Positions 1,276-63,050 are shown, counted from the stretch's first letter. The stretch is 64,000 nucleotides of DNA from a virus (IMGVR_UViG_3300029286_000020:27549-91548); one strand, 5' to 3'. Program-made: numbers and translations. The notes: generated from the sequence alone by a model not told the origin.

Positions 1276-1314
1276 AGAGAGAAACACCAACGGGACCATA
1301 TGGACCCGTTGGTG
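1276..1314 (-). terminator. Intrinsic-terminator-like hairpin after the sheath gene; its loop region carries the GGACCATATGGACC motif
   Basis: CACCAACGGG/CCCGTTGGTG stem followed on the minus strand by TTTCTCTCT. Confidence 0.65.
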
Positions 1315-1319
1315 GAAAG

Positions 1320-4172
1320 TCAGGAATTGAGGGACTTCTGCTGGAAGCGCATTCGCACGAACTCAGCAGGCTTGTTCGGGGCTGCACCAATGTCGATGAT
1401 GACTTGACCCGCTTCGATGGTGGCCGGGGTGTTGTTCGAGGAGTCGCAGACGACGAAGTACGCCTGTGACGGGTTCACACCCGCGAAGTAGCCTTGCGAG
1501 AACAAGTTGCCCATATAGGACTCCAGCTGCGCCGTGATGCGCGTCCAGAGGCCGGGACCATTGTTCTCGAAGACGATCCACCACGTAGCGTTGAAGACCG
1601 ACTTCTCCAAGAACATGAACAGCCGACGAGCGTTGATGTAGCGCCAGTCAGGTACGTTCGAGATGGTGCGGACGCCCCACACCGCGAGCCCAGTCTGCGT
1701 CGACGAGATCAACGGGTTGACCTTGTTCGGGTAGAGGAGGTCACGGTCTTCCTGCGTCGGAGACGTTTCCAGACCCACGAGGTAAGTCAAGGCGCCGTCC
1801 ACGGTGCCGCCGGGGCTCTTCCCGACGTTCCGGTTGTTGTCCGTGCGGGCGTAGACACCCGCGATGTGCCCGAGGGCAGGCATCAGCGTGGGCCGGTTGT
1901 TCATCAGGGGATTGGAGACCCGGACCCACGGCCAGTAGAGCGCCGCGTAGTCCGAGGACCGTGCGAGGCTGAACCGGAACCAATCGACTGCCCTCTGGGC
2001 CGTCAGCCCGGCAGGCGGGGTGAGGATGATGAAGCGGTCACCACCCTGCGGCATCAGCGCGCGGCCAGCGGCGTAGTCGAGCTGATCCTGCGAGATGATC
2101 ACGTTCCCGGCGAAGTCGACGATCGTGATCTGCAGCAGCTCCTCGACCTTGTTGAAGGCGTACATGCCCTTGTAGGTCGCAGCCAGCGCCGTGGCGTCGG
2201 TAAACTGCGACCGACCCCAGTTCGTTGAGTCGAACGTGCCTTCCTCACCCGGCAGGTAGTTCTTCGAGCTGTCGCCGAGGATCTCGGAGTGAACCGTCTC
2301 GGCCACCTTGTCGGCAAAGGTCGCGACGACGAGCGTGGCTCCCTTGATGTTGTTCAGGGTGGTGAACTCGACCGCGCCGGTCTCGTAGTCGATGGTGTTG
2401 ACCGCCGAAGTCAGGACTGACCCCACCAGATTGCCGTCACCGTCGTCCGTGATGACGCGCGCCGTGCCGCCCGTGTCGGTGTAGGCGATCGACACCGTCC
2501 GAGGCGCGATGGGTCCACCGAGCGAGGTCGAGAAGACTCGGTTGGGAGCCAGCGCGTTTCCGCCACCGAGAGCCAGCGTGTGCGGGACCGCATTCAGCTG
2601 GTAGGGCGGGATGTCACCGGCAGGCTCGTTGATCCGGATGAAATCGGACAACTCGTTCACGACGTCGGCAAAGTAGACAGGCGAGGTTGGGTCGTTGAAG
2701 ACCATCTCCTCGTACTGCTCGACGACGTTGAAGGACGACGTCGGCGTATTGCGCAGCAGCACCAGCATGTCGAAGCGGGTGTAGACGCCGGTCGAGGCAT
2801 CAAAGAAGTTTGGCGATCCAGCGATCTGGACCTGCAGGTTGTTTCCCCACGTCCCAACAGAGATCGGGTCAACCGACCACGCGTTGAGCGTGTAGTCCGA
2901 GAGGAGAGGGCTCTTGTTGCAGGGGATGAAGCCCGTGAGGTCGAGCGCGAACGCACCTGAGGAGTAGTCCACGGACCCGGGGGTCGCGACATCGCCGAGC
3001 CACAGACCTGCTGCCGAGGCGACGATCGGGGCGACTGAGAAGCCAGCAGCGGCGACGCTCTCCGAGAGCACAGGGGTCGGAGCGACGGACGAGTTCGGCA
3101 CCAGTTTGATCTGGGTCAACGATCCAGCCACGGCTTCGGCCTTGAGCAGAAGCAGGGGGGCGTTGTTGATGGCAGCGATTGTCGCGGCCTGAATCGTTGC
3201 CGTGGAGTCCGCGAGGGTGAACGGGATGGGGAGACCCGTTGAGGCGCCGTTCGAGTCGTACTCGAACGTGACCGGCGGGTTGACGCCATCATCGATAATG
3301 AAAGCGTCGGTGTCGATGAGGGAGGCGCCTGCAACAATCGAGATGGCTGCGAAGCCATCGACTGCCGTGCGGGTCGCAGTCGTCGGAGTGAAGTCCGCCG
3401 TGACGAGGGCACCGTTGTCTGCGAGCACTGGAACGAACGTTCCGAAAGTGCGGAGCGAGAAGCGCCCCGAGCGCGAGTCGAGGATCACGATCGCGCCGTC
3501 CGTGCCGTCACCGACCGAGGCTTGGACGATCGAACCCGTCCCTGCAGGAATCAAGATGGCCTGCGCACCGGGGCCCGCGAGCGTGAAGTTGATGGTGACG
3601 GTACCGCGCACGACGGCGTCGAGGTTGTTCACCAGCGTGGGGAGGCCAGCGGGATTGATGCGACCATCGTAGCTCGCCTGAGCCGTCACCAGCGAGAGGT
3701 TGGCGGTGCTGTCGCGATTGCGCGTGTTCTGAGCGACCACAGGGGCGCCTGCCGAGCGCCAGTTGACGTTGATCGAGCCGGGTACGAGGGGAGAGGCCCC
3801 CGCAGCCGTCGGGAACGACCCGGTGAACGCCGTCGTGACGCCGTCGCCCGTTCCGATGCTGTCGTCGGTGAGGTCTGACTGGATCTTCGCATTGGCAGCC
3901 ACCGCGTTCGCGGGGGGAACACGCACGATGAAGGCACGACGGCCACCGTTGGCGAAGAACGCCGCGAGCGAGAGAGGCATGAGGCTCTGCGTGACCAGCC
4001 CACCGAAGATGCGGGAGTACTGCTCGAAGCTCTGCACGAGCACAGCCTCGTTGGCCGGACCACGCTCTGCGTATCCCACGGTGCCGAGGTTCGAGGTCGT
4101 CACACCGGGAATGATCTGCGCCGCCGTCGGGACTTCTTCGACGAAAACACCGGGCGAGAGAATGTCAGCCAT
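1320..4172 (-). CDS. Tail sheath protein (gp18-like) with inserted beta-sandwich domains
   Basis: N-terminal SPGVFVEE...GYAERGP...FFANGGRRAFIVRV; C-terminal YAALYWPW...GHIAGVYARTD...VWGVRT...YINARRL...VFENN...APNKPAEFV. Confidence 0.95.
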   Translation of the reverse strand: MADILSPGVFVEEVPTAAQIIPGVTTSNLGTVGYAERGPANEAVLVQSFEQYSRIFGGLVTQSLMPLSLAAFFANGGRRAFIVRVPPANAVAANAKIQSDLTDDSIGTGDGVTTAFTGSFPTAAGASPLVPGSINVNWRSAGAPVVAQNTRNRDSTANLSLVTAQASYDGRINPAGLPTLVNNLDAVVRGTVTINFTLAGPGAQAILIPAGTGSIVQASVGDGTDGAIVILDSRSGRFSLRTFGTFVPVLADNGALVTADFTPTTATRTAVDGFAAISIVAGASLIDTDAFIIDDGVNPPVTFEYDSNGASTGLPIPFTLADSTATIQAATIAAINNAPLLLLKAEAVAGSLTQIKLVPNSSVAPTPVLSESVAAAGFSVAPIVASAAGLWLGDVATPGSVDYSSGAFALDLTGFIPCNKSPLLSDYTLNAWSVDPISVGTWGNNLQVQIAGSPNFFDASTGVYTRFDMLVLLRNTPTSSFNVVEQYEEMVFNDPTSPVYFADVVNELSDFIRINEPAGDIPPYQLNAVPHTLALGGGNALAPNRVFSTSLGGPIAPRTVSIAYTDTGGTARVITDDGDGNLVGSVLTSAVNTIDYETGAVEFTTLNNIKGATLVVATFADKVAETVHSEILGDSSKNYLPGEEGTFDSTNWGRSQFTDATALAATYKGMYAFNKVEELLQITIVDFAGNVIISQDQLDYAAGRALMPQGGDRFIILTPPAGLTAQRAVDWFRFSLARSSDYAALYWPWVRVSNPLMNNRPTLMPALGHIAGVYARTDNNRNVGKSPGGTVDGALTYLVGLETSPTQEDRDLLYPNKVNPLISSTQTGLAVWGVRTISNVPDWRYINARRLFMFLEKSVFNATWWIVFENNGPGLWTRITAQLESYMGNLFSQGYFAGVNPSQAYFVVCDSSNNTPATIEAGQVIIDIGAAPNKPAEFVRMRFQQKSLNS

Positions 4173-4213
4173 GTCGTGCTCCTACAGGTGAACAATGTCG
4201 CGGAAAGGGAGAA

Positions 4214-4546
4214 TCACTTCTTTTCAGGCGACGGAAGGATGGGGTCTTCCTTGACCTTGGCCTCAGGCTTTGCCTCAGGCTTCGCTTCAGGCTTCGCTTC
4301 AGGCTTCGCGGGAGCGGGGGCCTTCTTGACAGCGACGGTCACACCGGACTTCGACTTCTTCGCCGCGATGAGGGGGATGGCGCGAACCTCAGGGATCAGC
4401 GCGCGCTGGTCGAGCAAGCTCTTCATGGAAGCCGACAGTTCCACATCATCGGAGAGCGAGGTCCATGCCTTCGGAGGGAAAACTGCAACCTTGCCCTCGA
4501 TGGTGGCCGAGATGGAACCGCGAGTCGTGTTGTAGAACTTGCTCAT
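4214..4546 (-). CDS. Hypothetical protein with KPEA repeats
   Basis: 110-aa ORF coupled to the upstream gene; SD GAGG. Confidence 0.65.
   Translation of the reverse strand: MSKFYNTTRGSISATIEGKVAVFPPKAWTSLSDDVELSASMKSLLDQRALIPEVRAIPLIAAKKSKSGVTVAVKKAPAPAKPEAKPEAKPEAKPEAKVKEDPILPSPEKK
4260..4308. repeat. 12-bp tandem repeat x4 encoding (A)KPE
   Basis: cctcaggctttg cctcaggcttcg cttcaggcttcg cttcaggcttcg. Confidence 0.85.
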
Positions 4547-7833: not shown

Positions 7834-7863
7834 AAGACCTCCCTCTGGACCATATGGACCCGA

Positions 7864-15980: not shown

Positions 15981-17777
15981 TCAGCGCGCGCCTCGGGCGT
16001 TGAGATCTCGGAGCAGACCGCCAATTTCACGCAAGCGCAACTCCAAGCCTCGATCGGACTTCAGGATGGTGTCGAGCTTGGCGTCCATGCGTTTTGTGTC
16101 CTTCGGGTTGTAGCCCTCGGTCAACTCTCGGTCGGAGAAGCCGCTGTGCGTTGGGATCCCGCGACGACGGGCTGCGTCACGCGAGCTTGAGAGAGCCTTC
16201 ACCACCCGGTTCGGCTGGCGAGCCTCTGCTGGGGGACCATACGGGCCCTCTTCGGGGGGCGCTTCGCCCGGAGGAGCTTCCATCGGTGGAGGCGGGGGCA
16301 TGATGATGTTCTGTGCAGCGGCTTGATTTTCAGCGTCCTCGGCAGACTCCCCACTGCGCTGCTTCTTGATGGTGACGATCTCGTCTTCAGACAAACCGAA
16401 GACGTTCGAGAGAATCCACTGCAGCGAGACGAAGTCCCGCATGCGTGCCGCGAGGTCCGCTTTGGCCGTGCGAACTTCCATCTGAGCCAGCTCGAAAATG
16501 GCCGACGGCACCGTCATGTTGATGTCGTAGTCGACAGCGTAGGGGTCGAGGCCCAGCGCTGACAGATGGACGCGGGCGACCTTCCGGAGCCCGTTCTTCA
16601 GCTCCCGCTGGATGCGGAGGACGGTACGAGCAAAGCGGACATCCTCGCTGGACAGAACCGCCCGGGCCACACCGGATTCCTGCCCAAGGTACGCCTTCGG
16701 CACCTTGATGGCTGAAAACAGCTTGTCGCGGAAGTATTCGATGTCGTCCATCGCCTGCCACTGCGGGGCACCGAGAGTCTCGATGCGAGTGGAGTCCACG
16801 CCCTTCCGGGTAGGAACGAAGAAGTCCTCGTCCTGCGACAGCGCGTCGAACTTCAGGTTCAGTTTTCCAGTGCCCGGGTCAACAAACCGCTTCTTCCGGA
16901 AGTTCTGGCGGACACGATTCACGAAGGCGAGGGCTTCCTGCGGGGGCAGATCGCCGACATCGACGTAGAACGCAAAGCGCTCCGGGGCCCGCTGGAGGCG
17001 GTACACGAGGGCTGCGTCCTCCAGCAGCATGAGCCGCTTCCAGATCCAACGAGCAGCCTCCAAGGCGCTGTGGCCGTAGACCGAACGGCGCTCCTTCCCG
17101 CGCAAGCGAAAGTGGACCACCTCCCAGCTCTCAAACGCCGCCACCGGCTGATTCATCGGGTCCGAGCTTGTTGCCAAGTCGAACTTCGCAGACAGGGTTC
17201 GCTGGAAGTCGTTGTTGGTGAAGTCGAAGCGCCCCTTGAAGTCCTGCATGAAGCCGATCAGGTCACCCTTCGGGGTTTCAAGGCGGCGGACCGTCGGAGG
17301 AGGCAGATAGTTGATGCCTCTGACGCCGTCAGCGTTGACCAGAAGCTCCTCGTAGTCGTTCCCGTACTTGCACAAGGTTCGTGCAATTTCCCAGATCTCT
17401 TCGTCCATGCGAAGCGTTCGATTGAACAAGTCATCGAGGTTGCTTTGCAGAGTCTTGTCTGGAGAGGTGATCCAGATGGTTCGGTGGAGAACGGAGTCTG
17501 GCTGAGTCGCGTCGTCCGCGAGGATGTCGAGGGCAGTGGCGATCTCCCCGTAGTCGTCCATCTCCTCGTAGTCAGCGAACCGGAGGAGGAGGTCCGTGTC
17601 AAGGCGCAGGTAGTCCGTGAGGGCGTCGTAACCCACACCCGACATCAGGTCGATGGCTGTGGCGTCGCCACCGCCCAATTCGCCCGTCGCACCCTTGGCA
17701 AGCTGGATGTTCGCTTGGTCCTTGTCGCGGCTGAACGCAGCTGAAATTCGCTTGGCGACGTCGTCCGCGAATCCCAT
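15981..17777 (-). CDS. Portal protein (T4 gp20-like)
   Basis: YEEMD..GEIATALDI, VVHFRL, YGHSALE, LLEDAALVYRLQRAPERFAFYVDVGDLP, EDFFVP, DDIEYFRDKLFSAIKVPKAYL. Confidence 0.95.
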   Translation of the reverse strand: MGFADDVAKRISAAFSRDKDQANIQLAKGATGELGGGDATAIDLMSGVGYDALTDYLRLDTDLLLRFADYEEMDDYGEIATALDILADDATQPDSVLHRTIWITSPDKTLQSNLDDLFNRTLRMDEEIWEIARTLCKYGNDYEELLVNADGVRGINYLPPPTVRRLETPKGDLIGFMQDFKGRFDFTNNDFQRTLSAKFDLATSSDPMNQPVAAFESWEVVHFRLRGKERRSVYGHSALEAARWIWKRLMLLEDAALVYRLQRAPERFAFYVDVGDLPPQEALAFVNRVRQNFRKKRFVDPGTGKLNLKFDALSQDEDFFVPTRKGVDSTRIETLGAPQWQAMDDIEYFRDKLFSAIKVPKAYLGQESGVARAVLSSEDVRFARTVLRIQRELKNGLRKVARVHLSALGLDPYAVDYDINMTVPSAIFELAQMEVRTAKADLAARMRDFVSLQWILSNVFGLSEDEIVTIKKQRSGESAEDAENQAAAQNIIMPPPPPMEAPPGEAPPEEGPYGPPAEARQPNRVVKALSSSRDAARRRGIPTHSGFSDRELTEGYNPKDTKRMDAKLDTILKSDRGLELRLREIGGLLRDLNARGAR

Positions 17778-20999: not shown

Positions 21000-22838
21000 T
21001 CATTTGCTTCCCCAACTTTGGCCCCCGCCGACTTCCGCGCGCGTCGGGACGGACGGAAGCATTGGAGCGATGCCTTCGATCATGCCGTCGTGCAGCTCCT
21101 GCCGAACGTGAATTTCCAGTTCAGGATCCTCGTCGTGTTCGCAGACGATCTCGTCGTGGACCATATGGACCGGCGCGCACTTCGCCCCCTTACCGAGAAG
21201 GGGCGTTCGCCCTGCAAGCTTCTTCATACGGTCGTAGACGTTGCGGATGGCAACCTTGAGGCCGTCGGCCCCAGTGCCTTGGATGGGGCTGTTGTAGAAC
21301 TCGTTGTGTGCCTTCTCATCCTTGATGATGCGTCGACGACCCCAAGCCGTCCGGGTCTCGCGCTGACGCTTGCCTGAGTCCATCGCCAACCGATGCCACG
21401 AGTCGATCCCCGCGTATGCCTCGAAGAAGCGTCGGCGGAACGTGCGGGCTTGGTTCTCCGTGAACGACACCCCGTAGCCCTGCTTCGCGTACATCACAAG
21501 GCGAGCGGCCTGCATCCCGTAGATGAAGCCGAAGTTGACCGGCTTGGCTTGCTGGCGTTCGGCCTTCACGATCTCCGACTCAGGCTTGCCGGTCACGAGG
21601 GACGCCGTCGCGTAGTGAGCATCGCGGTCGTCTCGGAACACCTTGATGAGCACCGGATCCTTGGAGATCTCGGCAACAATCCGCATCTCGATGTTGCTCC
21701 AATCGCAGATGGCCAAGGTTCTACCGGGCTCGGCCCTGAAGCAGTCTCGAAAGGCACCCCCACGAGGTACTTGCTGGAGGTTCGGTCCTCGATTCGCGTA
21801 GCGCCCCGTGTCTGTGAAAGGGAAGTACGACGAGTGGATGCGACCCGACGTCGGGTGGATATTCTTCAGGTACTCCTCGCCGAACGCCTTCACCGACTGC
21901 GCATAACCTCGGTACTCGATGAACTCTTTGAGGATTGGCCAGCGGTCAGCCTCCATAGCCAGCGTCATCTCCTTCGTGTCCATCAAAGGGACTGTCTTCG
22001 TCAGCCCGGTCTCCGGGTCTTTCCACTTCTGCTTCACTCCCAGCATGTGGAAGGACCGAAGGATCTGGTCGGTAGAGTCGAGGTTGAAGCTGGCAGGACC
22101 GAAGAGGCCCAACTGGTTCGATGGGTTCGGGAGCTTGGAAAGCAAGCTTGCCCGCAGCCGCTCCAGCTGAACCCGGTCCGATGCTGTCCGCGTGAGCCAC
22201 ATATCTTTGTTGAGGAAGAACCCGTTCAGCTCCATGCACGCTTCGGGGAGAACCGCATTGAACTCCAGCTGTGCAATCTTCACCAGCCGCGCATCGACGA
22301 TCTTTTTCTTGAGGACGTCGCGGAGCCGGGGAAGCTTGTCGATGTCGTCTGCGGCGTAGTCAAGCTGTCGCTGTGTCAGCGTCCCGTCCCAATCGGAACC
22401 GCCGAGGTCTTCGACGGTCGCGGCTTCGCCCAGCTCGCGCTTGTAGAGGCTCCACAGGTCGTGCTTCAGCCCGGGGAGGCCCGCGTAGATGATGCTCGAC
22501 GCGCGCAGGGTGTCGAACAGCTTCCCGATCTCCAGATCGAAGTGCCAGAGCAGCCACTTCTGGTCGAACTTCATGTTCTGACCGACCGTGACGCCCTTGG
22601 TCCGCCTGAAGGCATCCAAAACGGGGCCGAGCGTCTTCGTCTTGTAGAGGTCAATAAGGTAGAGACCCTGTCCGGTGTTGACCGAGAACAGGCGTGGACG
22701 CCCTGTCAGGGGGTCGAAGCTACCCCCACCGCCGATCTTTGCGGTTTCCAGATCGAGCCCGATGACATCGGCACTCTCAATTTCACGAGCAATAGCGGCG
22801 AGCAAATGCTCATCAGTGACGACGGTGTACGGGCGCAA
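21000..22838 (-). CDS. polA: Family A DNA polymerase with 3'-5' exonuclease
   Basis: ExoI DLET, QNMKFD, YAADD; TGR...PNLQQ; motif A DWSNIEMR, motif B RQQAKPVNFGFIYG, motif C VHDE. Confidence 0.95.
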   Translation of the reverse strand: MRPYTVVTDEHLLAAIAREIESADVIGLDLETAKIGGGGSFDPLTGRPRLFSVNTGQGLYLIDLYKTKTLGPVLDAFRRTKGVTVGQNMKFDQKWLLWHFDLEIGKLFDTLRASSIIYAGLPGLKHDLWSLYKRELGEAATVEDLGGSDWDGTLTQRQLDYAADDIDKLPRLRDVLKKKIVDARLVKIAQLEFNAVLPEACMELNGFFLNKDMWLTRTASDRVQLERLRASLLSKLPNPSNQLGLFGPASFNLDSTDQILRSFHMLGVKQKWKDPETGLTKTVPLMDTKEMTLAMEADRWPILKEFIEYRGYAQSVKAFGEEYLKNIHPTSGRIHSSYFPFTDTGRYANRGPNLQQVPRGGAFRDCFRAEPGRTLAICDWSNIEMRIVAEISKDPVLIKVFRDDRDAHYATASLVTGKPESEIVKAERQQAKPVNFGFIYGMQAARLVMYAKQGYGVSFTENQARTFRRRFFEAYAGIDSWHRLAMDSGKRQRETRTAWGRRRIIKDEKAHNEFYNSPIQGTGADGLKVAIRNVYDRMKKLAGRTPLLGKGAKCAPVHMVHDEIVCEHDEDPELEIHVRQELHDGMIEGIAPMLPSVPTRAEVGGGQSWGSK

Positions 22839-29188: not shown

Positions 29189-29229
29189 GCGAGCCTCAGG
29201 CGAACGTGGTGAACGGAACCGTATGGTCC

Positions 29230-30053: not shown

Positions 30054-30863
30054 TCAAGAATCAAGGACCGCTTTGGCCGTATCTTTGGACTTGTCGAGCG
30101 CCTTCAGAGCCTGCTTCCCTGCCTCTTCAATGAGGGGCGCCAAGAAGTCGTTGACGTCTTCGTTGGCGTGCTTGCAGTAGGCAAGAACCTTGTCGAGGGC
30201 CTTCTTGGTGTTGCGATTCATTTGCACATAGATGTGCTCTTGCTTGCCGAACGAAAACACCATGAAAGAGAGGTTCACCGTGTCGCCGTGCTTGGCGAAG
30301 AGGTGCTGAAGGATGTTGGAGAGGTCTTCGACTGTCTTGGCTTCCTTGGCTTTGTCGTCGAACTCGTCCTGTAGCTCTTTCGGGAGCGACTTCTTCAGCC
30401 CGCGCTTCACATCGCCGACGATCTTCTGGAAGCCCTTTGTGTCAGCGTAGCCCATCAGCTGTTGGAGAGCGTCGGCGCCGTACTTCGTCGCCATTTCTCC
30501 GTAGAGCTTGGCGAACTTCTCTGGATCCAGTTTTCCCTTCAACACGTTCAATCGAACGGTGACGAACTTCTGAAGATCCTCGTCTTGCCACTTCGAGTCT
30601 GAAAGGACCGCACAAGGCAGTTCGTCGAGCCCAATGATCTTGGCTGCCTGCCAGCGATGCTCGCCACCGATGATGCGATAGGTGCCGTCGTCCATCGGCA
30701 CCACTTCGAGGGGATCTAGGAAGCCCACGTCGCGGATCTCGTCGACGAGACGCTGAAAGGTGATCTCGTCTTGACCCTGTGGGTTCCACGAGTTCGGGTG
30801 AATGAGGTCGATGGGGATGTGACGAAGTTCGATGCGACCGGGTTTGACGTCAGGATTGCTCAA
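30054..30863 (-). CDS. ParB/Srx N-terminal domain protein
   Basis: IPIDLIHPNSWNP...GFLDPLEV...YRIIGGEHRWQAA. Confidence 0.85.
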   Translation of the reverse strand: MSNPDVKPGRIELRHIPIDLIHPNSWNPQGQDEITFQRLVDEIRDVGFLDPLEVVPMDDGTYRIIGGEHRWQAAKIIGLDELPCAVLSDSKWQDEDLQKFVTVRLNVLKGKLDPEKFAKLYGEMATKYGADALQQLMGYADTKGFQKIVGDVKRGLKKSLPKELQDEFDDKAKEAKTVEDLSNILQHLFAKHGDTVNLSFMVFSFGKQEHIYVQMNRNTKKALDKVLAYCKHANEDVNDFLAPLIEEAGKQALKALDKSKDTAKAVLDS

Positions 30864-33432: not shown

Positions 33433-34268
33433 GGGCTACCGAAGCAGGCTTTGGAAACCGGGCACGCCTTAGCGCGAGCGCAGGAGTCGTTGCCGCAGAT
33501 GCGGTCGGGCAGGGTCTTCGATTCCATACCGGACCATACGGACCTGATGAGGTTGCGGACAAGGTCGATGGTGTCCTCGTCGCGGTCGATGTGATGCTCC
33601 ACGAGGCTGCCAAGCCCGCTCTCGGCCTTCTGCCAGTAGAGGATCTTCCCCCACTTGAACCCGGTGAACATCATGTAGATGTGGGTCTGCACCATGTGCG
33701 CGATCTGTGGCACCTGCTTGATCTCCCGTCCGCCGCGCTCCCCGATGCTTTTGATCTCAAGGATGCCCATGCCTTGGAGGCCGGGAAGCACAAGGAACCC
33801 GTCGCTGTGCCCCGTCAGTCGCAGCGCGTGGTCGACGAACTTGTGCTCGATGAATCGGAACGCTGCGCTTTCGCACTTCAGGCACACCTTCGGCATTGGC
33901 CGGGACCAGTCCTCCGGGCGTGTACCGTCGATGTATTCGCCGTATCGCTTCAAGCACCCCAAGCACTCCCACGTCCCGTAGAGCACGCCCGACTGGCCAA
34001 GCAGCTCGTTCTGAACAGCCCAATGGAGGGCGGTTCCGTGCAAGAAGGTCAGGTTGAGGCCGACGTCGACGGTGTCCCTCCGAACGATCTTGTTGAGAGT
34101 GCAGAGCACCTCTTCACGAGCGCAGAGCGATGGAATTCCAGACGCACGGAGGTAGCTGGCGACGGGATCGAGCGGTTGTTTCGGCTCATCCCGAACAAAA
34201 GTCTCAGAGATGATTCGGAGAAGCGACCCATGGCCGGTCTCTCCCCGCAGTACGTTGGCAAGGCTCAT
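33429..34268 (-). CDS. Cas4-like / PD-(D/E)XK exonuclease
   Basis: RAS...CARE, GTALH, GHSDG, LEIKS, QTHIYM, C-terminal Cys cluster. Confidence 0.8.
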   Translation of the reverse strand: MSLANVLRGETGHGSLLRIISETFVRDEPKQPLDPVASYLRASGIPSLCAREEVLCTLNKIVRRDTVDVGLNLTFLHGTALHWAVQNELLGQSGVLYGTWECLGCLKRYGEYIDGTRPEDWSRPMPKVCLKCESAAFRFIEHKFVDHALRLTGHSDGFLVLPGLQGMGILEIKSIGERGGREIKQVPQIAHMVQTHIYMMFTGFKWGKILYWQKAESGLGSLVEHHIDRDEDTIDLVRNLIRSVWSGMESKTLPDRICGNDSCARAKACPVSKACFGSP

Positions 34269-41180: not shown

Positions 41181-41576
41181 TCAGGTGATGTCGATGACCG
41201 ACTTGTTGACGCGCTTTCGTTCTTCAACAAGCAGCTGAACGTAGAATTTGTCGAACCGCTTAGTTTTCGTGGCGCCGCCTGGCTCGCGGCGGTGAACGGA
41301 GTCCCGCTCACGCCCGTAGGAGGTGAGCGAGATGGCTTCTCGGCTGCTCGACTCAGAGACCATACGGTACTTCTTGAGCTGGGCGAGGGCGATGTCCATC
41401 GCGGCGTTGAACTTGGTCGGGTCGAAGTTGTCTGTGTTCGGTGACGACTTCACAGGAACCTTGTTCCTACTGTTTGCAGGGCGCGCGCGAGGCAAGTCCG
41501 CGCGCAAGAAAATGGCAAGAACCATGTGCTTGAAGAGGAAAGGGTAATCCGGAACCTTGAAGCCGTCTTCAGCCAC
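41181..41576 (-). CDS. Hypothetical basic protein
   Basis: 131-aa ORF with SD GGAGG between helicase and primase. Confidence 0.55.
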   Translation of the reverse strand: MAEDGFKVPDYPFLFKHMVLAIFLRADLPRARPANSRNKVPVKSSPNTDNFDPTKFNAAMDIALAQLKKYRMVSESSSREAISLTSYGRERDSVHRREPGGATKTKRFDKFYVQLLVEERKRVNKSVIDIT

Positions 41577-43514: not shown

Positions 43515-45559
43515 TTCTTGACACCCGCCTTCGTCGCCCGATGAGCCGCAAGCAGCTCGGGAGGAGGAACCGCAAACGGATCGTGTTTGACCGTCGCCAG
43601 CCACTCCGCGTACTCGGTTTTGTTCATCGGGGTTTTGATGAGGCGTCGCAGTTCAGCGAAGACCGAGGCGTGGCATGCGTAGAGCAGGCCGATGGTCGGG
43701 ACGCCGTCGCGGGTCTTCGTCAAAAGCGGACCGAACTTGTCCCAGTGGGTCACGAACCCTCGCACAAGGTGCTCCACCGTGGCCTCGTCACCACCGTAGC
43801 CTTCGAGTAGGTCCGTGATCAGCTTCCCCTCTTTGCGCGCAAGGAGCTTCCCACCTTCGCGCTTGAACCACGTGATCTGCGGCACGTCAGGGAAGGCCGC
43901 ACCCATCTCCTCGCGCCACGCCAGCTCGATGCGCTGCGCTGCGGGCTTCTGGCTTCGGTACGGGGCATCGCTGGTCAAGTTGGCCTTCTTGCGCTCCTTG
44001 GTCCGCTGCTTCTGAAATTTTGCCTCCACCGCAGCCCGGCTCCGCTGCTTGGCCTGCTCCACCACCGCCATCACCGCAGAGAGGTCAGGGGGGACAGCCG
44101 GAAGGGCCTCTCCAGCCCCGGGAACGGCCTCGGGAGCCGCGCTAGGGGTACCGGTAGGGGGTTGGGTCGGGTCTGAGGCTCTGGTGCGGTTTGGGAGCGT
44201 CACGCGGGGTTCCTCGTTTCGGGGTGGGTCCTCCGAGCCTGTAACCGAGGTTCCCAAGTTTTCCGCTGACAGCCGTGGACTCGGCTCGACGGGGGAAAGG
44301 GGGGCGAGCGGAACTGGGGGTTTGGGGGTCGGCTCCGGCTCCGGCTCCGGAAACGAGTTCAACAACGAGTTCGAGTTCAGCAGCGGAAACGAGTTGAGCG
44401 GCGAAGCTGAGAATCCTGAATCGAGACTGCGACCAAGGCAGACGAAGGCTGCCGAAGGTTCGCTGCCTGAACCGAAGGGAGAAAGGATCAAATACGAAGT
44501 ATTTGAGCCTTTCCCCGTAGGGGAAGGCATTCTATGTCCACTATGTATGTACGGATTTTCAGCCGTCGTAACTCCCTGAAAACTCGGCTGAAAGTCGATG
44601 TCGTACCCCGTTTCTGATGTTCTCTCAGGGGACATCTGATGTTCCCTGAGGGGACATCGCAACTCGGCGATGTCGCTTTCCGACCCTCGATAATTCAGGG
44701 ACTTAGCCGATGCGCTTTCGACGGTTTCGGTCTCTTTTCGCTCGCCGGGGACATCGAGCGCTTGCGGACATCTGATGTTACCGGAAAAATTCCAGACTGC
44801 TGCGTTTTCAAGGGGTTGCCGCAGATTGAGTTGGATACCGTCGGTCTTCCCGGGAACATCGCACGCTTCTGAGTCGGTCAGAGGCGGGTGGAACCAGAAC
44901 GGGACATCGAGCCTTTCAACGGGTGGGAGGACGCTCTTGGAGAGCGCGCGCTGAGGCTTCGACTGCTTGAGTTTGGGACCGGCTGTCGGCTTGAGGTGGA
45001 CGACCGGCATCACGTACCCGGTGGGGAGAGCCCCCGCCTTGTTCAAGACATCGGCTGCCGTCGCATGCTGGTTGGCCGGGGAAAGCTTGCGGTAGGACGT
45101 TCCCCAGCAAGCCTTGGCGTGGTCGTTGGCTTTCTCGTACCAGCTTTGCTGCACTGCGTCAGCGTAGACGGCTTCGGCCCATGTCGACCCTTGCGGGCGT
45201 CTGATGCCCAGCTCGTAGATTTTGTCACGCCCGGTTCGCCCTCCCATCACGATCCAGCCGAGGTTGGCCAGTTTTCGGAGCTGCTGGTTCACGCGGGGGC
45301 GCGAGACGCCTGAGACTTCCGCCAGCTGGGACTGGCTGACCTTGGCTGAGAGGAAGCCGAGCACGGTCCGCTCGCAAAGGTCGTCGGGACCATATGTTTC
45401 CTGTCGCCAGACGAAGGCACGTAGCGCGTCGTAGACGGCGAGCGTCTGCAGACCCAGCAGGGATGGTAGGTGAAGTCGATGGCGAAGGTGGAGGACTTGG
45501 TCGAAGCCGGTCGGAACTACTGCGCTGCTGGAAGTCTGTGCGCGCGCCTGCTTCGCCAT
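43511..45559 (-). CDS. Putative replication initiator (N-terminal winged HTH, long disordered middle)
   Basis: VSQSQLAEVSGVSRPRVNQQLRKLANLGWI HTH; gene order initiator-loader-DnaB-primase; internal iteron-like repeats. Confidence 0.65.
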   Translation of the reverse strand: MAKQARAQTSSSAVVPTGFDQVLHLRHRLHLPSLLGLQTLAVYDALRAFVWRQETYGPDDLCERTVLGFLSAKVSQSQLAEVSGVSRPRVNQQLRKLANLGWIVMGGRTGRDKIYELGIRRPQGSTWAEAVYADAVQQSWYEKANDHAKACWGTSYRKLSPANQHATAADVLNKAGALPTGYVMPVVHLKPTAGPKLKQSKPQRALSKSVLPPVERLDVPFWFHPPLTDSEACDVPGKTDGIQLNLRQPLENAAVWNFSGNIRCPQALDVPGERKETETVESASAKSLNYRGSESDIAELRCPLREHQMSPERTSETGYDIDFQPSFQGVTTAENPYIHSGHRMPSPTGKGSNTSYLILSPFGSGSEPSAAFVCLGRSLDSGFSASPLNSFPLLNSNSLLNSFPEPEPEPTPKPPVPLAPLSPVEPSPRLSAENLGTSVTGSEDPPRNEEPRVTLPNRTRASDPTQPPTGTPSAAPEAVPGAGEALPAVPPDLSAVMAVVEQAKQRSRAAVEAKFQKQRTKERKKANLTSDAPYRSQKPAAQRIELAWREEMGAAFPDVPQITWFKREGGKLLARKEGKLITDLLEGYGGDEATVEHLVRGFVTHWDKFGPLLTKTRDGVPTIGLLYACHASVFAELRRLIKTPMNKTEYAEWLATVKHDPFAVPPPELLAAHRATKAGVKK
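44597..44908. repeat. Iteron-like cluster (GGGACATC/GATGT half-sites), candidate replication origin
   Basis: Tandem 22-mers TGATGTTCTCTCAGGGGACATC (44615-44636) and TGATGTTCCCTGAGGGGACATC (44637-44658), plus half-sites near 44747, 44766, 44852 and 44901. Confidence 0.7.
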
Positions 45560-50142: not shown

Positions 50143-50958
50143 CTACCCCCGCCAGCCGGGCTCAACCAAGTCGAGGTGATTCTCAAGGTCCTTCAGGCGT
50201 TCTCGGACCAGCTTCTGCTGCTCCAGCTGCGTCCGACTCACGCGTTCCCCCTTCAGATCCCACTCCTCGAACAGAGCGTAGGTGCGTGGCCAGTTGTGCT
50301 GAACGATTTTCGCAACCGCCTCGGCGTAGACGCGAATCTCCTGTTGTGCGTTTGGCGCCATCCGCAGCCCAAGGAAGTGCAGCCAGTTCCGCAGGTTCCC
50401 CTTCACACGCATGCGCGTGTAGCGAGCGACCGGCGTGTTCACACGAGCAACTTCGCGCACAAGACCAGATTCAAGAGCCCGTTCGTACCGATCGTAGACG
50501 TCCTGCTGCTCGTCTCGGAAGCCTGTCACGAGGCTGTCGGCCAGCAGAGGGTCGAGAGGCTCAAGCGCCGAGCCTTGCTTGTTCCCTTTGGACTGCTGGA
50601 CCATACGGTCCATCGGCGGGACGTAGTGCAGGTTCGGCATCTGCGCGTAGCGCGCGGAAAGCTCGTTGTAGGAGAGCGTCCTGTGCCGCATCCACTCCCG
50701 AGCAACGAAGATGGGGAGCTGCACTTCAACGAGCAGCTCGCACATCTCGAACGGCGTGTGGTGCCCCTCGCGGTAGAGGTAGGTCAGGAGCCCGTCGTCG
50801 CCTTTCGGGTGGTCAGGGTATGGATCCCACGAGACGAACCCGCCGCTCGTCGACATACGAGCAGCCTCGATGATGGACTCTTCAGCTCCCATCCAGTCAA
50901 TCAGTTGAACGTAGCCTGCATCGAGGACAGCGGTCCGGTCAGTTCTCTGCAAAGGCAC
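50143..50958 (-). CDS. thyX: Flavin-dependent thymidylate synthase
   Basis: AARMS, HHTPFE, PIFVAREWMRHRTLSYNELSARY, REVAR, NLRNWLHFLGLR, AQQEIR. Confidence 0.96.
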   Translation of the reverse strand: MPLQRTDRTAVLDAGYVQLIDWMGAEESIIEAARMSTSGGFVSWDPYPDHPKGDDGLLTYLYREGHHTPFEMCELLVEVQLPIFVAREWMRHRTLSYNELSARYAQMPNLHYVPPMDRMVQQSKGNKQGSALEPLDPLLADSLVTGFRDEQQDVYDRYERALESGLVREVARVNTPVARYTRMRVKGNLRNWLHFLGLRMAPNAQQEIRVYAEAVAKIVQHNWPRTYALFEEWDLKGERVSRTQLEQQKLVRERLKDLENHLDLVEPGWRG

Positions 50959-51745: not shown

Positions 51746-54073
51746 TCAGAGCGTGATGGGCTCGCCAACTTGAACAAGAACCTTCGGGTTCGCGCCACCA
51801 TCTGTGAGGATGCCCACACGCTGGACAACGTCGTTCGTTGCGCTCGGAGCCGTGAGCGTGATCTGTCCGGGCAGCAACGCTGACATGAACACACGCTTAC
51901 CGACGTCCGCCGCTGTCGGTGCTGCGTCGAACAGCGCTGCTGGAACCGACGCCACACCCGCGATCCGGATCGTCACCGCTGCCGTGGCAGACGCTGCAGC
52001 GACGGCAAACCCGACCGGACCCTGACGGGCCGTATCGTTCGAGTCGGCCTTCTGCACGTTCGGCGTGCTACCATTGTCAACGTAGCGAACCAAGTCGCCG
52101 AGCAGCAGGTTCTGTTGAGCCACCGAGGCCACGTCCACGAAGGAAAAGGAAGGCGCGGACCACGTCAGCGTTCCCGCGCCGTCGTTCGTCAAGACCGTAC
52201 TGGCTGCGCCAGCCGCCGTCGGCCACGTCGTCGCATTGCCGTTGGCGCTGATTTGCAGATTTCCCGCTGCCGTCAAGTTGACCACGCCCGACGTGATGGT
52301 CGAGAGCGTGAGGTTCGCGCTCGTGACCGAGACGTTGGAAGCAGCCACACCGTCGATGGAGAAGCCACCTGCCGAAGCGACCAAGTCGATAGCGTCGACA
52401 CCCGTACCAGCTGATTGGACGAGCACCTTCTGAGCGCCGCCGCCCGCTGCTGCAAGCGTGAGGCTCTGGGCCGAGCCCGTGACAGTGACGTTCGACGACG
52501 TCGCGCCATCGATCAAGAACGTCCCCGTCGAATCGATGGTGATGCCGCCCGTACCGGCGTCCACATCGATGCCGCCCGCCGCGTTGCTTGCCACGATCCG
52601 CACCGCGTCAGCCGCCGCCTCACCACCGTCGAGGATGAGCGACGCCGCCTGCGCGTCGAGCGTCAAGTCACCTGCCGTGGTCGCCAGCGTGGAGGCTGCG
52701 CCGCCCGTCAGGGACACCGTGCCCACAGTCACCGTGAGGCTGCCAACCAAGGCGAGCGTGTCCGTGCCGGAGTTGTAGGTCAGCTGGGTGTCGCCAGCGA
52801 TGGCGCTGCTCGTCGACCAGAACGCGACTTGGTTCGCGGTGCCTGAGCCCGTGACCATCGCAGGAGCGTTCTCGTAAGACCAAGCTGCGACGACATCGCT
52901 GTTGAGGCCACCGAAGGCAACGATCGAGAGGTAGCCAACGTCACCTGCCGCAAGTGAAGAAGGACCAGTGGCCTCAGACCCCAACCACGTCCAACCCGCA
53001 GGCCAATTGAGCGTGCGAGTCGTTCCATCACACTGGACTCGAACCGAGGCACCACGACCGTTCCCGAGCCCGGTCGTCGAGAAGGTTGCGTTGCCGTTGA
53101 GGGTGACCGAGTTGTAGATGGGCTTGATCGGGTCGGTGTCGATGGTGATCGCACCACCCGCCGCCAGAGGGTTGAACCGATCGAGGGTGAGGTTGTAGCT
53201 CTGGCCCAAGTCGTCTTGGAAGTAGGGCCGAGCGTCCGCTGCCGAGTTCGCCCACAGCTTGCCGAACGCCGTCGTTGGGAGGGTCGGCGCTGCACCCTCT
53301 CCGATGGAGATGACGCCTGAGACCGTCAGCTTCTCGTTGGTGCTGTTGGTGCCAATACCGAGCTGGGCGGCTCCGTCGTTGTAGAACAGCTGTGCAGCCA
53401 CGCCGCCAAAGACGCCGCCGTTGTTGTACTGGACCGCGCCGTCGGTGCCGCCCGGAGTGCTTGCAGCGTCGACATATGCCTTGGTCGCGGCGTCGTGCGG
53501 GAGCGTCGGGTCGGCCATGTTCCGCAGGCGCGAGTTCTCCGTCCGGATGTCGTAGACGCTGGTGTTGTCAACACCGGGCAGGGTCCACGCCGTCGCAGTC
53601 GTCAGCACCGTGGCAGTGTTCGATGCGATGACACGCGATTGACCGACACCCGTGCCTGCCGTGATCTGCACGACGTTGCCAGCGAAGGCGTTGACGCCGA
53701 AAGACGCACCGGAGTCGGTGAGAGTGCTCGCGCCGCCTGACGTTGCAGTTCCCGTAGCCGCCGACACACCGTCCATCACGATGTCGGAGACGATGGTCGA
53801 AACGAGCGTGACGGTGTCGGGGCCATCAACGCCAACGACACCGAAGGTCACGTCGCCTTGGAAGGTCGCATTCGTCTGGAAGGTCGTGCCGGGGACCGTC
53901 GAGATGCCGCCGTCCAGAGCCACCGGACCGGGGAACGAGGTCGTGATGCCGATGCCACCGATGGTGAGGGTTGCCCCCGCCGAAACGATCCCTGCACCGA
54001 CTTGGAGGATGTCAGTCGAGAGGATCCGGCGCTGTGTTCCGCCATCGATAACGAGAGCAGTTTGATTTGGCAT
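51746..54073 (-). CDS. Virion fibre/decoration protein (Gly/Thr/Ala-rich, multi-module)
   Basis: ADPT..HDAATKAYVD, GAVQYNNGGVFGG, LGIGT..EKLTVSG, VLTNDGAGTLTW fibre-type motifs. Confidence 0.7.
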   Translation of the reverse strand: MPNQTALVIDGGTQRRILSTDILQVGAGIVSAGATLTIGGIGITTSFPGPVALDGGISTVPGTTFQTNATFQGDVTFGVVGVDGPDTVTLVSTIVSDIVMDGVSAATGTATSGGASTLTDSGASFGVNAFAGNVVQITAGTGVGQSRVIASNTATVLTTATAWTLPGVDNTSVYDIRTENSRLRNMADPTLPHDAATKAYVDAASTPGGTDGAVQYNNGGVFGGVAAQLFYNDGAAQLGIGTNSTNEKLTVSGVISIGEGAAPTLPTTAFGKLWANSAADARPYFQDDLGQSYNLTLDRFNPLAAGGAITIDTDPIKPIYNSVTLNGNATFSTTGLGNGRGASVRVQCDGTTRTLNWPAGWTWLGSEATGPSSLAAGDVGYLSIVAFGGLNSDVVAAWSYENAPAMVTGSGTANQVAFWSTSSAIAGDTQLTYNSGTDTLALVGSLTVTVGTVSLTGGAASTLATTAGDLTLDAQAASLILDGGEAAADAVRIVASNAAGGIDVDAGTGGITIDSTGTFLIDGATSSNVTVTGSAQSLTLAAAGGGAQKVLVQSAGTGVDAIDLVASAGGFSIDGVAASNVSVTSANLTLSTITSGVVNLTAAGNLQISANGNATTWPTAAGAASTVLTNDGAGTLTWSAPSFSFVDVASVAQQNLLLGDLVRYVDNGSTPNVQKADSNDTARQGPVGFAVAAASATAAVTIRIAGVASVPAALFDAAPTAADVGKRVFMSALLPGQITLTAPSATNDVVQRVGILTDGGANPKVLVQVGEPITL

Positions 54074-55489: not shown

Positions 55490-55499
55490 CGAGGACCAT

Positions 55500-55823
55500 A
55501 TGGACCTGAACGAGTACCAGAAGGCCGCTGCGCGCACTTCGTCCCGCCCCATCACCAAGCTCTCGATCGCCGTCAGTGCGATGGGCCTCGCCGGTGAAGC
55601 CGGAGAGGTCGTCGACTTGCTCAAGAAGGAGATCGGCCACGGGCACGACGCGGACCCTGAGAAGCTGTCGAAAGAGTTGGGCGACGTGCTCTGGTACCTG
55701 TCCGACCTCGCCACGCTGCACAACCTGTCGCTGGACGACATCGCGCAAGCGAACATCCTGAAGCTCCTGAAGCGGTACCCAGACGGGTTCAGTACCGAAG
55801 CCAGCCGGAACCGCACGGAATGA
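55500..55823 (+). CDS. MazG-like nucleotide pyrophosphohydrolase
   Basis: LNEYQ, GLAGEAGEVVD, KELGDVLWY, NILKL..RYP.GF. Confidence 0.92.
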   Translation: MDLNEYQKAAARTSSRPITKLSIAVSAMGLAGEAGEVVDLLKKEIGHGHDADPEKLSKELGDVLWYLSDLATLHNLSLDDIAQANILKLLKRYPDGFSTEASRNRTE

Positions 55824-58262: not shown

Positions 58263-59057
58263 CTATCCGAGCTGGCCTTTGATTTGTGCCTTCTTGATGG
58301 CTGCGCGCCCTTCAAGCAGCATCGCGCGGACTTCCTTCTCGCCCATGCCGAGGTTCAGGCCATCTGCTTTGGTGTCGAGCATGACGACCTTGGCCCAGTT
58401 GGCGTCTTCGATGTGCTCGCGGTCCTGCGCTGCCAGCATGTTGCTGATGGTGCCCTCTGCGCGATCGATCTTCGTGAAGGGCGGCTTGCGCGGCTTCGAC
58501 TCGTTGGGGCTGCGGACCTTGAGGCCCAACACAGGGACACCGTCGTTGGGATTGGCCCAGCCCTCATAGTCAAGCGCAAAGTTCATGCGGACGCCACCAT
58601 CCTCGTAGAGGTCGCCGTCGATCTCAGCCATGTCGAAGATCGGGAGACACATGCTCGCGAACAGCCGGATGGGAAGGTCGCCTGACGTCCAGACCTTCGA
58701 CTCCCCCTTCGTCCAGTTTGTTGTGACGATGTGCAGCTTCGAGTGACCGTCTTCGACCTTCGGGTGGAGGTGCTTCTTGAAGACCTTGAGCAGTCCGTCC
58801 TTCGTGTAGAGCCCCGCCTGACCTCCGAACGGAAACCAGTTTTTCGTGAGGAACGTGCTGGGAAGGAGGGTCAGCGCCAGCGACTCCAGTTCCGCGCTGG
58901 TCTTGAACTTCGCAGCAGCAGCAGCTGTGACCGCGCCACCTGACGCACCGACCATCTCGGGGAACGTGAACCCCAAGTCCAGCAGTTCGCAGACTGCGCC
59001 GATCTGAACCGGGTACCGCGTTCCAGAGCCAGACAGAACGAGCTTGAGACGCTTCAC
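58263..59057 (-). CDS. Patatin-like phospholipase
   Basis: LVLSGSG, GASGG (GxSxG), ASMCLP, YEDGG; GTG start with SD GGAGG. Confidence 0.88.
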   Translation of the reverse strand: MKRLKLVLSGSGTRYPVQIGAVCELLDLGFTFPEMVGASGGAVTAAAAAKFKTSAELESLALTLLPSTFLTKNWFPFGGQAGLYTKDGLLKVFKKHLHPKVEDGHSKLHIVTTNWTKGESKVWTSGDLPIRLFASMCLPIFDMAEIDGDLYEDGGVRMNFALDYEGWANPNDGVPVLGLKVRSPNESKPRKPPFTKIDRAEGTISNMLAAQDREHIEDANWAKVVMLDTKADGLNLGMGEKEVRAMLLEGRAAIKKAQIKGQLG

Positions 59058-59159
59058 TTGAACCTCCGTTGAAAGACACGGCACCTTACGTGCCCTTCTG
59101 AAAGTTGGCGAGAGGCTTTGGTTTTCGTGTTACGTCCGCCCGGAGTAGGGAACCCACGC

Positions 59160-60157: not shown

Positions 60158-60158
60158 G

Positions 60159-60744: not shown

Positions 60745-60765
60745 AATACACCTGATTTCTGCTGT

Positions 60766-61377
60766 TCACAGCTTCTTGGGTTTTCGTCCTCTACGCGACG
60801 GAGAAACAATCAGTGGTCCGCCGACATGCGCCCATCTTTCGTTGCGCTTGATGCCTTCTATGCATGAACGAGTAACACCGAACTCCGCAGCTATTTCAGC
60901 GATCGTCTTGGAAGATCCTCGGACCCGGCGAGCGGCGTCAGAAGTCAGCTTCGCACGCGGATTTCTTTCTCCTTGAGGAGTTCTCCCGTTGCGCCGGGCG
61001 TCAGCTGCGTTGTCTGTCTGCGATGCGTATCTCAGGTTCGCCAAGGCGTTGTTGTCGACGTTGTCGTCGTAGTGGCACACCACGCTGTGTGGAGGGCGTG
61101 GTCCGACGAAGGCGAGCATGACAAGATGCGCGAGGTGCAAGACTCGCTTCCCCAGCCTTCCGTTGTTGAGGCTGATAACCACGACGCGACGTTTGGTGAC
61201 GCCTACGAAGGCGTTTATCAGGCCCAGCTCTCTTGGAGACGCATCGAGATGGACAGAGCTACTCCCGTAGCCCTGTCGCTTGAAACTGAATACGCGCCCG
61301 AAGTCGGTGACGAAGTAGCCGTCCCAACCCGGAATAGGCTGCTGGTTCTCGCCCGGTTGCAGGTGATCGGTGTGCAT
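60766..61377 (-). mobile_element. NUMOD4-HNH homing endonuclease
   Basis: IPGWDGYFVTDFGRVFS, HLVMLAFVGPRP, CHYDDNVDNN..NLRY...N. Confidence 0.88.
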
Positions 61378-61535
61378 GTGGACCTCCGCCGACAGCCTAA
61401 TCACCACGCTGCGCGAGAGCCACATTTTCCTAGCCTGCTTTCTGCCTCTCGGCTGCACCGCAAACGTGCGGTAGACGAGATGTAACTCCTGTTTTGGAAG
61501 TTCCAGATCAGCTCATTTGAACTCAGAGGTCTGTC

Positions 61536-61763: not shown

Positions 61764-61901
61764 TCGCCGAAAGTGATCCGTCTGGACCATACGGTCCTCA
61801 AAATAGATCCCGGATCCGCCGGTTTTCATGGGGAAAATGTTTCGCTTATATGGCTTCGTGTAGCCGTATTTTTCGGTTACTTGGCGCACTGAACGCAAGC
61901 G

Positions 61902-61929: not shown

Positions 61930-61983
61930 GGCCGAAGAAAGTCCGGGCGCCTGACGGATCAGGCCCACGAGACGGAGGCAGAC

Positions 61984-62631: not shown

Positions 62632-62715
62632 ACAACAGCGGGTCGGGTGAACAACCCGGATCCGAGTTACTCCACCAACAGAGCGGGACGGTTCCCGCCG
62701 ACAATAGGAGACGCC

Positions 62716-63000
62716 ATGAAGAGCAGCATCGTCCGCCGCACCGCCATCCAAGCCATCCTTGCTTCCCCGATCCACGGTGCCATCGCCGCCGTTCCCAGCC
62801 TCGACCTCAACCGCGAGGAGGACCAACGCCGCACGATGCGCGCAGCGGTCCATGTCGTCGCGGGCCTCCTGCTGGAGAAGGGCGCCAACCCCAACGATCT
62901 CGCCCAAGCCTGCCTTGAAGCCATCACGAAGGAGATGCAGAACCTGCAGGACCAACACGAGGGTGACGGCACCTTCATGCAGGCTGGCGCTGACGCCTGA
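62716..63000 (+). CDS. Hypothetical protein
   Basis: SD AGGAG before ATG 62716. Confidence 0.55.
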   Translation: MKSSIVRRTAIQAILASPIHGAIAAVPSLDLNREEDQRRTMRAAVHVVAGLLLEKGANPNDLAQACLEAITKEMQNLQDQHEGDGTFMQAGADA

Positions 63001-63016
63001 GCCGCGCCCACAAACG

Positions 63017-63050
63017 AAAGACCCCGGACCATACGGTGCCGGGGTCTTTT
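63017..63050. terminator. Bidirectional terminator between convergent genes; loop carries the GGACCATACGG motif
   Basis: AAAGACCCCGG-accatacggtg-CCGGGGTCTTTT. Confidence 0.8.

Follow-up and report, generated by a model that had tools for sequence, protein, structure and literature searches.

A lineage-specific DNA word at evenly spaced, boundary-biased positions in the genome of a T4-like phage

The stretch of DNA analyzed here (hereafter, the window) comprises 64,000 nucleotides, corresponding to bases 27549-91548 of the 91,548-bp IMG/VR viral contig IMGVR_UViG_3300029286_000020 (G0, estimated 54% complete). It carries repeated copies of the word GGACCATAYGG, which forms the core of a 14-bp site. 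The site is real, selected at the DNA level, biased toward gene boundaries, and evenly spaced, and it occurs in lineage-specific versions. The phage is T4-like, with a large terminase and a portal protein of the T4 gp20 type, for which the nearest cultured relatives show only ~38% identity. A near-identity search of cultured phages yielded no match, and IMG/VR contains many relatives of the phage. From 2 to 83.6 kb of the contig, the minus strand encodes nearly all genes, several of which were confirmed by homology. The window contains ten exact copies of the 11-mer (nine plus-strand copies and one minus-strand copy, at 29216-29229), and the contig contains 15. An original prediction, made from the sequence alone, had placed all ten of these copies correctly, together with two near copies at 41357 and 45387.

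Several related contigs were used for comparison. A 62-kb contig from a sister strain, G2, matches the right third of G0 at 90-99% identity and extends it by 25.8 kb; the G0+G2 composite spans 117 kb and holds 23 sites (at most one mismatch to the 11-mer). A further sister contig adds 17 kb at the left end, giving ~135 kb in all. The 50-kb contig G1 is syntenic with G0 at 68-78% nucleotide identity and carries 10 sites. More distant relatives include G8 (179 kb, 88% estimated completeness), G7 (168 kb, 80% complete), and G9 (60 kb), all of which are incomplete contigs. A 14-mer scan across the whole collection returned mostly single chance matches and was of use only for locating a sister contig, and a search for the site words in the literature matched only unrelated primers.

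At the left end of the window, the site GGACCATATGGACC (1293..1306, plus strand) is intergenic, 13 nt past a stop codon and 57 nt ahead of the next start. A 30-nt hairpin (1285-1314; minimum free energy, MFE, -20.2) has this site at its apex, with a T-rich run coming next on the minus (gene) strand; the counterpart of the site in G1 is a flipped copy with one mismatch. The same 14-mer, GGACCATATGGACC, occurs at 7847..7860 (plus) within a 30-bp gap that leaves 3 nt between the preceding stop codon and the site and 13 nt between the site and the next start, with the Shine-Dalgarno sequence directly 3' of the site; G1 has kept this site as GGACCATACGGACC, with flanks that have diverged around it. 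Two sites that are absent from G1 lie in the variable C-terminal tail of the portal gene (GGACCATACGGGCC, 16234..16247, plus; peptide EGPYGPP) and within motif C of PolA (GGACCATATGGACC, 21158..21171, plus; APVHMVHD). The minus-strand copy, GGACCATACGGTTC (29216..29229), abuts the stop codon of the upstream gene, 27 nt ahead of the start of a 1612-aa gene, and a two-mismatch copy is the best-conserved stretch of this gap in G1. The site GGACCATACGGACC (33531..33544, plus) is located in the gene for a Cas4-like exonuclease (IRSVWSGM), ~100 nt before its stop codon, and is exact in G1.

Both near copies are on the plus strand. The first, AGACCATACGGTAC (41357..41370), lies in a 131-aa open reading frame (ORF), is not kept in G1, and helps to fill a 17-kb gap between exact sites, and the second, GGACCATATGTTTC (45387..45400), begins 159 nt into the gene of a 682-aa winged helix-turn-helix (HTH) protein. 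The remaining exact copies, all on the plus strand, are GGACCATACGGTCC within thyX (50598..50611; PMDRMVQQ), GGACCATATGGACC at an uncertain gene boundary (55493..55506), GGACCATACGGTCC in an intergenic position 20 nt past a stop codon (61784..61797) and 364 bp from a 677-bp segment that is missing in the sister strain, and GGACCATACGGTGC (63026..63039), which forms the apex of a terminator-like hairpin (~63017-63048; 30-nt MFE -22.1) between convergent genes. The two terminator-like hairpins with a site at the apex (1293 and 63026), as well as the four peptide contexts in three codon phases, had been described correctly in the original prediction.

The number of copies far exceeds that expected by chance. 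Dinucleotide-preserving shuffles of the window gave 0.01 expected copies, and Markov models of order 0-4 gave 0.02-0.12 for the whole contig vs. the 15 observed, so that the predicted excess held under both kinds of background. The enrichment was >100-fold under each background used, and no other k-mers of the genome come close to the over-representation of GGACCATAYGG and its sub-words. The octamer GGACCATA is confined in G0 to the sites and one near copy. Chance or base composition as the origin of the copies was ruled out by these backgrounds and by synonymous-codon shuffles within genes (n = 2000).

The synonymous shuffles also bear on the level at which the word is selected. Ten sites were observed in coding sequences vs. 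0.83 expected, and none of the 2000 shuffles reached ten. Nine G0 sites fall within the region shared with G1, including three that are exact (contig 26066 and 35395; window 33531), two that carry mismatches (including one flipped copy), and four that are lost; the intergenic sites form islands of conservation between these 70%-identical genomes. G1 in turn has sites that G0 lacks. One such site is in the capsid gene of G1, which spells the peptide ESPYGP with TAT GGT (TAC GGC in G0) and has a third-position GC of 0.88. Another is in the P-loop of the helicase and arose by amino-acid changes. The PolA peptide VHMVH is encoded in G1 by different codons, with no site. The excess over synonymous shuffles and the codon differences between G0 and G1 indicate that the word is selected at the nucleic-acid level, which confirms the earlier proposal that selection acts on the DNA and not on the peptide, as identical peptides occur with and without the site in a 70%-identical relative. 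Site positions turn over between relatives, with density being kept.

The sequence logo for 50 sites (five contigs of the G0 clade) shows information in 14 positions only, and none in the flanks. Positions 1-8 (GGACCATA) and 10-11 (GG), which were fixed by the search itself, are nearly invariant. Either C or T occupies position 9, any base is found at position 12 (T in 48%), and positions 13 and 14 are C in 78% and 92% of the sites, respectively. The site, GGACCATAYGGnCC, is a near-palindrome that, on account of this logo, consists of a strict half (GGACCATA) and a loose half (YGGnCC). Such asymmetry suggests that it would be read by a protein with two unlike DNA-reading parts, or by a dimer in which one half-site dominates. 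Pairing between positions 3 and 12 is possible in 36% of 33 sites of the G0 clade, and the flanking bases pair at the random level, with the exception of four or five sites. Most 14-mers of this clade fold at just -1.6 to -3 kcal/mol and form no stable hairpin, and the 16-mer of G8 folds at -9.6 and does form one. Because the G0 clade does not preserve hairpin pairing, it appears to be the sequence that is read, not a structure. Sequence-specific recognition, as had been predicted, thus fits better than a hairpin; the binders named with it did not stand, as described below. CRISPR-repeat mimics, RNA hairpins of the nut/boxB type, and REP-like elements were set aside in view of the length of only 14 bp, the uninformative flanks, the loss of pairing, and the intragenic copies.

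The 23 sites of the composite are separated by gaps of 1.2-8.4 kb (mean, 5.2 kb), with a coefficient of variation (CV) of 0.41 (P ~1e-5 vs. uniform placement). This value was reached in none of 50,000 placements restricted to gene junctions, and the exact sites of the composite alone gave a CV of 0.58 (P = 0.007). Among the ten exact copies of the window taken by themselves, regularity did not reach significance (CV 0.64, P = 0.11) and emerged only with the 117-kb composite. The sites are also close to gene boundaries, at a median distance of 62 nt vs. 219 nt for random positions (P = 3e-4); 14 of the 23 are within 70 nt of a boundary (P = 5e-5), and the farthest is 417 nt away vs. an expected maximum of ~1490 nt (P = 9e-4). 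Common placements are immediately behind a stop codon and at the same time 13-60 nt ahead of the next start and, for two sites, the apex of a long terminator-like hairpin; a site covers the start codon at contig 18004 and probably at 26066. The independence of context implied by the original prediction was therefore overstated. The boundary bias can reflect either a function at gene junctions or the settling of sites where they are least harmful.

In a possible, albeit doubtful, interpretation, the site would be a self-specific address word that a large family of uncultured T4-like phages keeps in lineage-specific versions. Its copies would have become denser in some clades and would form an evenly spaced lattice (one per 3-5 kb) that extends even into capsid, polymerase, and helicase genes, and this lattice would serve a chromosome-wide process rather than gene-by-gene regulation. 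The lattice might provide entry points for loading a sliding or spreading protein, self-vs.-host discrimination for packaging, or relief of supercoils. Its reader would be of a kind with which such arrays have so far not been associated, for instance, a dead-HNH/tandem ribbon-helix-helix (RHH) protein or a small-terminase-like protein.

The plus-strand polarity that had been noted for 11 of 12 sites was confirmed within the window, although not outside it. The orientation of the sites in the upstream 27.5 kb is +,-,-,-,+, that in the left-hand 17 kb of the sister contig is mixed, and the composite contains 17 plus and 6 minus sites (P = 0.035); over 135 kb, the split is ~19 to 7. Site orientation is independent of transcription, with 13 sites running against the local gene strand and 10 running with it. 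The minus-strand gene block contains six intragenic sites, all in one orientation, which accounts for much of the apparent polarity of the window. Site 63026 is present in G2 as its exact reverse complement with the hairpin stem unchanged, indicating that orientation can flip without loss of the site. A two-domain, replichore-like polarity was ruled out by the mixed orientation of the extra 17 kb at the left. Overall, the polarity is weak.

Within contig positions 26 to 108 kb, 16 of 17 sites share one orientation, and the asymmetric site has a 4-bp centre between inverted arms. Together with the presence of HNH-like genes, these features would suit sites that mark strand-specific nicks, double-strand cleavage, or base modification, with the asymmetry directing an enzyme to one strand. 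Fixed nicks are found in T5 and phiKMV-like phages. A system of this type would have all of its sites on one strand and an active nickase, and the ~19 to 7 split departs from this strand rule. Such a role is nevertheless very unlikely, given the mixed orientation outside this block and the inversion of one site between strains. Moreover, the conserved HNH-like protein has L or M in place of the catalytic His (39 of 39 aligned members), the intact HNH/NUMOD4 gene is missing from the sister strain, whose sites persist, and the scan of window ORFs turned up no methyltransferase.

Of the seven indels that distinguish G0 from G2, three are no more than 60 bp from a site (rough chance probability, ~4e-4). 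The first is a 125-bp insertion in G2 beside the inverted site (63017-63048), the second is a 200-bp insertion that carries a near copy, and the third is a 982-bp intein (G2 51984-52966, starting with CLHPDTPVL) that follows GWGK of the helicase Walker A motif and holds an exact site. The helicase gene of G0 (37536-39035) lacks the intein, and the helicase site of G1 begins a few bases downstream of the intein insertion point. The 677-bp segment that is missing from G2 contains a free-standing homing-endonuclease gene with HNH_3, NUMOD4, and HTH matches (60766-61458, minus). As for other neighbouring genes, a protein with a zeta-toxin-like kinase domain is encoded beside the 1612-aa giant protein (22896-29188), and a patatin-like phospholipase and a thaumatin-family protein are encoded at 58263-59084 and 63081-63929.

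Distant relatives (52-56% portal identity) lack the G0 word, and each has its own over-represented palindrome of like design. These are CGWCCAYRTGGWCG in G8 (46 copies in 179 kb), CGACCAWTGGTCG in G6 (10 copies in 185 kb), and CGTCCATATGGACG in G7 (10 copies in 168 kb), the last of which is also the word of G10 (5 copies in 126 kb). About 40 further lineages carry GG...CC or CG...CG versions at the portal and HNH-RHH gene loci, and one lineage (IMGVR_UViG_3300032053_000185 and a relative) has GTCGATCGAC instead, with 3-4 copies in 20 kb. In the G015 clade (61% identity), GGACCATACGGTCC occurs about every 2.6 kb. In every case, a pyrimidine-purine step forms the centre of the site. In the distant relatives, almost all sites are intergenic, and the spacing in G8 is not regular (CV 0.83). 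G10 also contains a different repeated palindrome around ACAATTGT (6 copies in 126 kb). The simplest history would be that the ancestor was a sparse, promoter-adjacent intergenic palindrome, which in the G0/G015 clade became asymmetric, denser, more even, and tolerated in genes.

The surroundings of the sites in these relatives recall the promoter-early stem-loops (PeSLs) of T4-type phages, which are stem-loop plus promoter units near indels (PMC4122927, PMC2839356). In G8, 10 of the 46 sites are 4-25 nt upstream of a TTGACA/TTGACG box firing away from the site (~2 expected), and 14 are within 60 nt of GGAAAACT (~1.3 expected); G6 has a fixed site-to-GGAAAACTCC arrangement. In such a case, the site would be the stem-loop part of PeSL-like terminator-plus-promoter cassettes, acting as an RNA hairpin and as a recombination point for module shuffling. 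The T4-like character of the phage, the two window sites that crown terminator-like hairpins, and the three indels near sites are in line with this possibility. It is, however, unlikely, as in the G0 clade the hairpin is not conserved and the flanks of the 50 sites contain no promoter information, including no sigma-70-like promoter downstream. About nine or ten sites are intragenic, several through silent codon choice in core genes, and in several cases the next start is only 3-27 nt away, too close for a promoter to fit in between. In addition, PeSL stems follow loose consensus patterns (PMC4122927), whereas the arms of the site are invariant within a genome. The words GGAAAACTCC and CTTGACAA are strongly over-represented and mostly intergenic in G8, G6, and G7, and probably represent two promoter classes of the phage family. 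In G0, GGAAAACT as a site-linked promoter was ruled out, as its 27 copies (~14-fold enriched) are mostly intragenic and unrelated to the sites.

Three proteins of the window had been named as possible binders, and none of them was supported. The ParB_N-domain protein (30054..30863, minus; Pfam PF02195 at 2e-12, phrog_26387) has a conserved GGEHR box, and its Pfam match spans residues 12-86 only, with none beyond. Its structure model has a predicted local distance difference test score (pLDDT) of <65 over most of the C-terminal two thirds and is of low confidence outside the N-domain. The 'HTH neighbour' (31091-32152) has no HTH match in Pfam or PHROGs, and the RHH-like ORF (144 aa, 49442-49876) was found in the sister strain only, apart from a 50-residue match of 32% identity in G10.

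The presence of a ParB_N protein with a CTP-binding N-domain raises the alternative that the sites load a CTP-dependent clamp of the ParB/KorB type, which would slide from the palindromes over the chromosome. Palindromes of 14-16 bp are of parS/OB size and are evenly placed ~5 kb apart, a spacing that a limited sliding range would favour; KorB slides at most 1.5 kb from OB sites (PMC11790492). This alternative is quite unlikely in light of the co-occurrence pattern, which comes from two incomplete contigs: ParB_N had no match in G8, which has the most sites (46), and G9 contains both a ParB-like gene and a candidate HNH-RHH gene, with no sites in 60 kb. Lineages with differing sites share a ParB-like protein at 43-48% identity and with many invariant columns, and the site of the G0 clade is asymmetric. 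The surrounding PolA-type replication module is also missing in G8, in which PolA, the ParB-like protein, the Cas4-like exonuclease, the RecA-like protein, the primase, and the DnaB-like helicase of the window (21000-42900) were not detectable, with the structural and packaging genes being shared. It looks as if the whole replication module was swapped within the family.

The best candidate reader is a 201-aa HNH-like/RHH protein that is encoded on the minus strand at contig 25491-26096, ~1.45-2.06 kb upstream of the window. Its AlphaFold model (pLDDT 87) shows a beta-beta-alpha HNH-type zinc unit followed by two beta-alpha-alpha units, and Foldseek returned weak matches to HNH nickases, McrA, TraY, and VirC2. 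Both TraY and VirC2 are single-chain tandem RHH DNA binders, and some homologues of the 201-aa protein match Pfam RHH_5. The replacement of the catalytic His throughout the family indicates that the protein is probably not a nuclease. The start region of the gene itself carries a site; in relatives down to 61% identity, a site is likewise at or just before the start, and in many other lineages it is ~1 kb downstream, at the end of a two-gene unit with the HNH-RHH gene. All high-density genomes (G0, G1, G015, and G8) carry the gene. The family belongs to the tail module, and the homologues found are all unnamed proteins, mostly from metagenome or viral contigs. The dead-HNH/tandem-RHH protein may be considered the leading, albeit unproven, candidate reader. 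Only 10 orthogroups are common to four site-bearing genomes, all of them structural or packaging. This shared set includes a 252-aa protein encoded upstream of TerL, with nearest Atlas clusters that include small-terminase and HTH families, and it may be regarded as a candidate reader, as a lead only.

These observations tentatively favour, with less than even confidence, the interpretation that GGACCATAYGGnCC is the recognition site of a sequence-specific, probably phage-encoded protein, that the sites constitute a genome-wide operator or transcription-punctuation array, and that the 201-aa protein is a candidate for its reader. Such a protein would occupy the chromosome at approximately one site per 5 kb, mainly at gene junctions, and the array would act like dispersed operator systems. 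The binding itself, the identity of the reader, and the effect of binding are inferred.

Several points weigh against an operator array read by the 201-aa protein. An operator array alone does not predict even spacing, and no orthologous gene was found to recurrently adjoin a site across lineages, as would be the case for a conserved regulon. The HNH-RHH gene was not found in G7 (10 sites, 80% complete) and is present in the site-free G9 (60 kb), and thus is neither clearly necessary nor clearly sufficient. Residues of the HNH-RHH beta-strand differ between the ATAY-centred clade and the rest, a difference that is confounded with phylogeny. The reader might also be encoded by the host, for example, a nucleoid protein, a global regulator, or a topoisomerase, in which case the versions would track different hosts. 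None of the phage genes tested co-occurs perfectly with the sites, the shared orthogroups are structural or packaging only, and the pyrimidine-purine centre is constant, all of which would agree with a host protein. Close relatives from the same sample series share the site version, although this fits a phage or a host reader alike, and a host-encoded reader is considered very unlikely.

The family provides a series with differing versions of the word, densities from 0 to 1 per 3 kb, and selection on silent codons, which is material for finding the reader by covariation. The sites constrain codon choice in core genes and are located at strain-to-strain rearrangement points, and the array raises the question of what need a lytic phage has for marks at even intervals. 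Should the reader prove to be a new kind of DNA-binding protein, or the array to serve packaging or chromosome organization, phage genome biology would gain a further layer.

A few temperate phages and plasmids are known to have dispersed operator arrays, and no description of one in T4-like phages was found. The C1 operators of P1 and the conserved inverted repeats (CIRs) of phiC31 are systems of temperate phages in which one repressor acts at ~15-20 dispersed sites, with the phiC31 repeats often located beside terminators; to our knowledge, neither even spacing nor intragenic copies are features of these systems. Versions of the stoperators of mycobacteriophages reportedly co-evolve with the repressor. 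The stoperators of Cluster A mycobacteriophages (L5 and TipsytheTRex) likewise comprise >20 copies of a short asymmetric word throughout the genome, mostly in short intergenic gaps (PMC9283540), and the 23 sites in 117 kb described here, of which 14 are within 70 nt of a gene boundary, are similarly numerous copies of an asymmetric word of this size (13-14 bp). The reader of the L5 stoperators is one phage protein with two unlike domains (PMC9283540). In contrast to the present sites, with 13 opposite to and 10 in the direction of the local genes, the orientation of stoperators follows transcription and is needed for function (PMC9283540). Furthermore, the phage studied here is T4-like with a near-palindromic site, and no sign of lysogeny was seen in the parts available; neither a monomeric immunity repressor with an HTH and a stoperator domain nor an integrase was found among the ORFs scanned of this incomplete genome.

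The OB sites of the IncP plasmid RK2 occur about once every 5 kb. The KorB/OB system of this plasmid also resembles the array in its dispersed palindrome of 13-16 bp, with some sites at promoters and some far off (PMC11790492), and a ParB-family gene is present in the phage. It differs in that the site-richest relative lacks ParB_N, the ParB-like protein showed no detectable HTH for DNA binding, a KorA-like partner is not known, and the site of the G0 clade is asymmetric. PeSLs share with the array the T4-like genome, the short repeated palindromes at junctions, the promoter-like words just downstream of sites in G8 and G6, and the nearby indels. The array departs from them through its invariant arms and its copies in core genes and, in the G0 clade, through a hairpin that is not maintained and flanks that carry no promoter signal.

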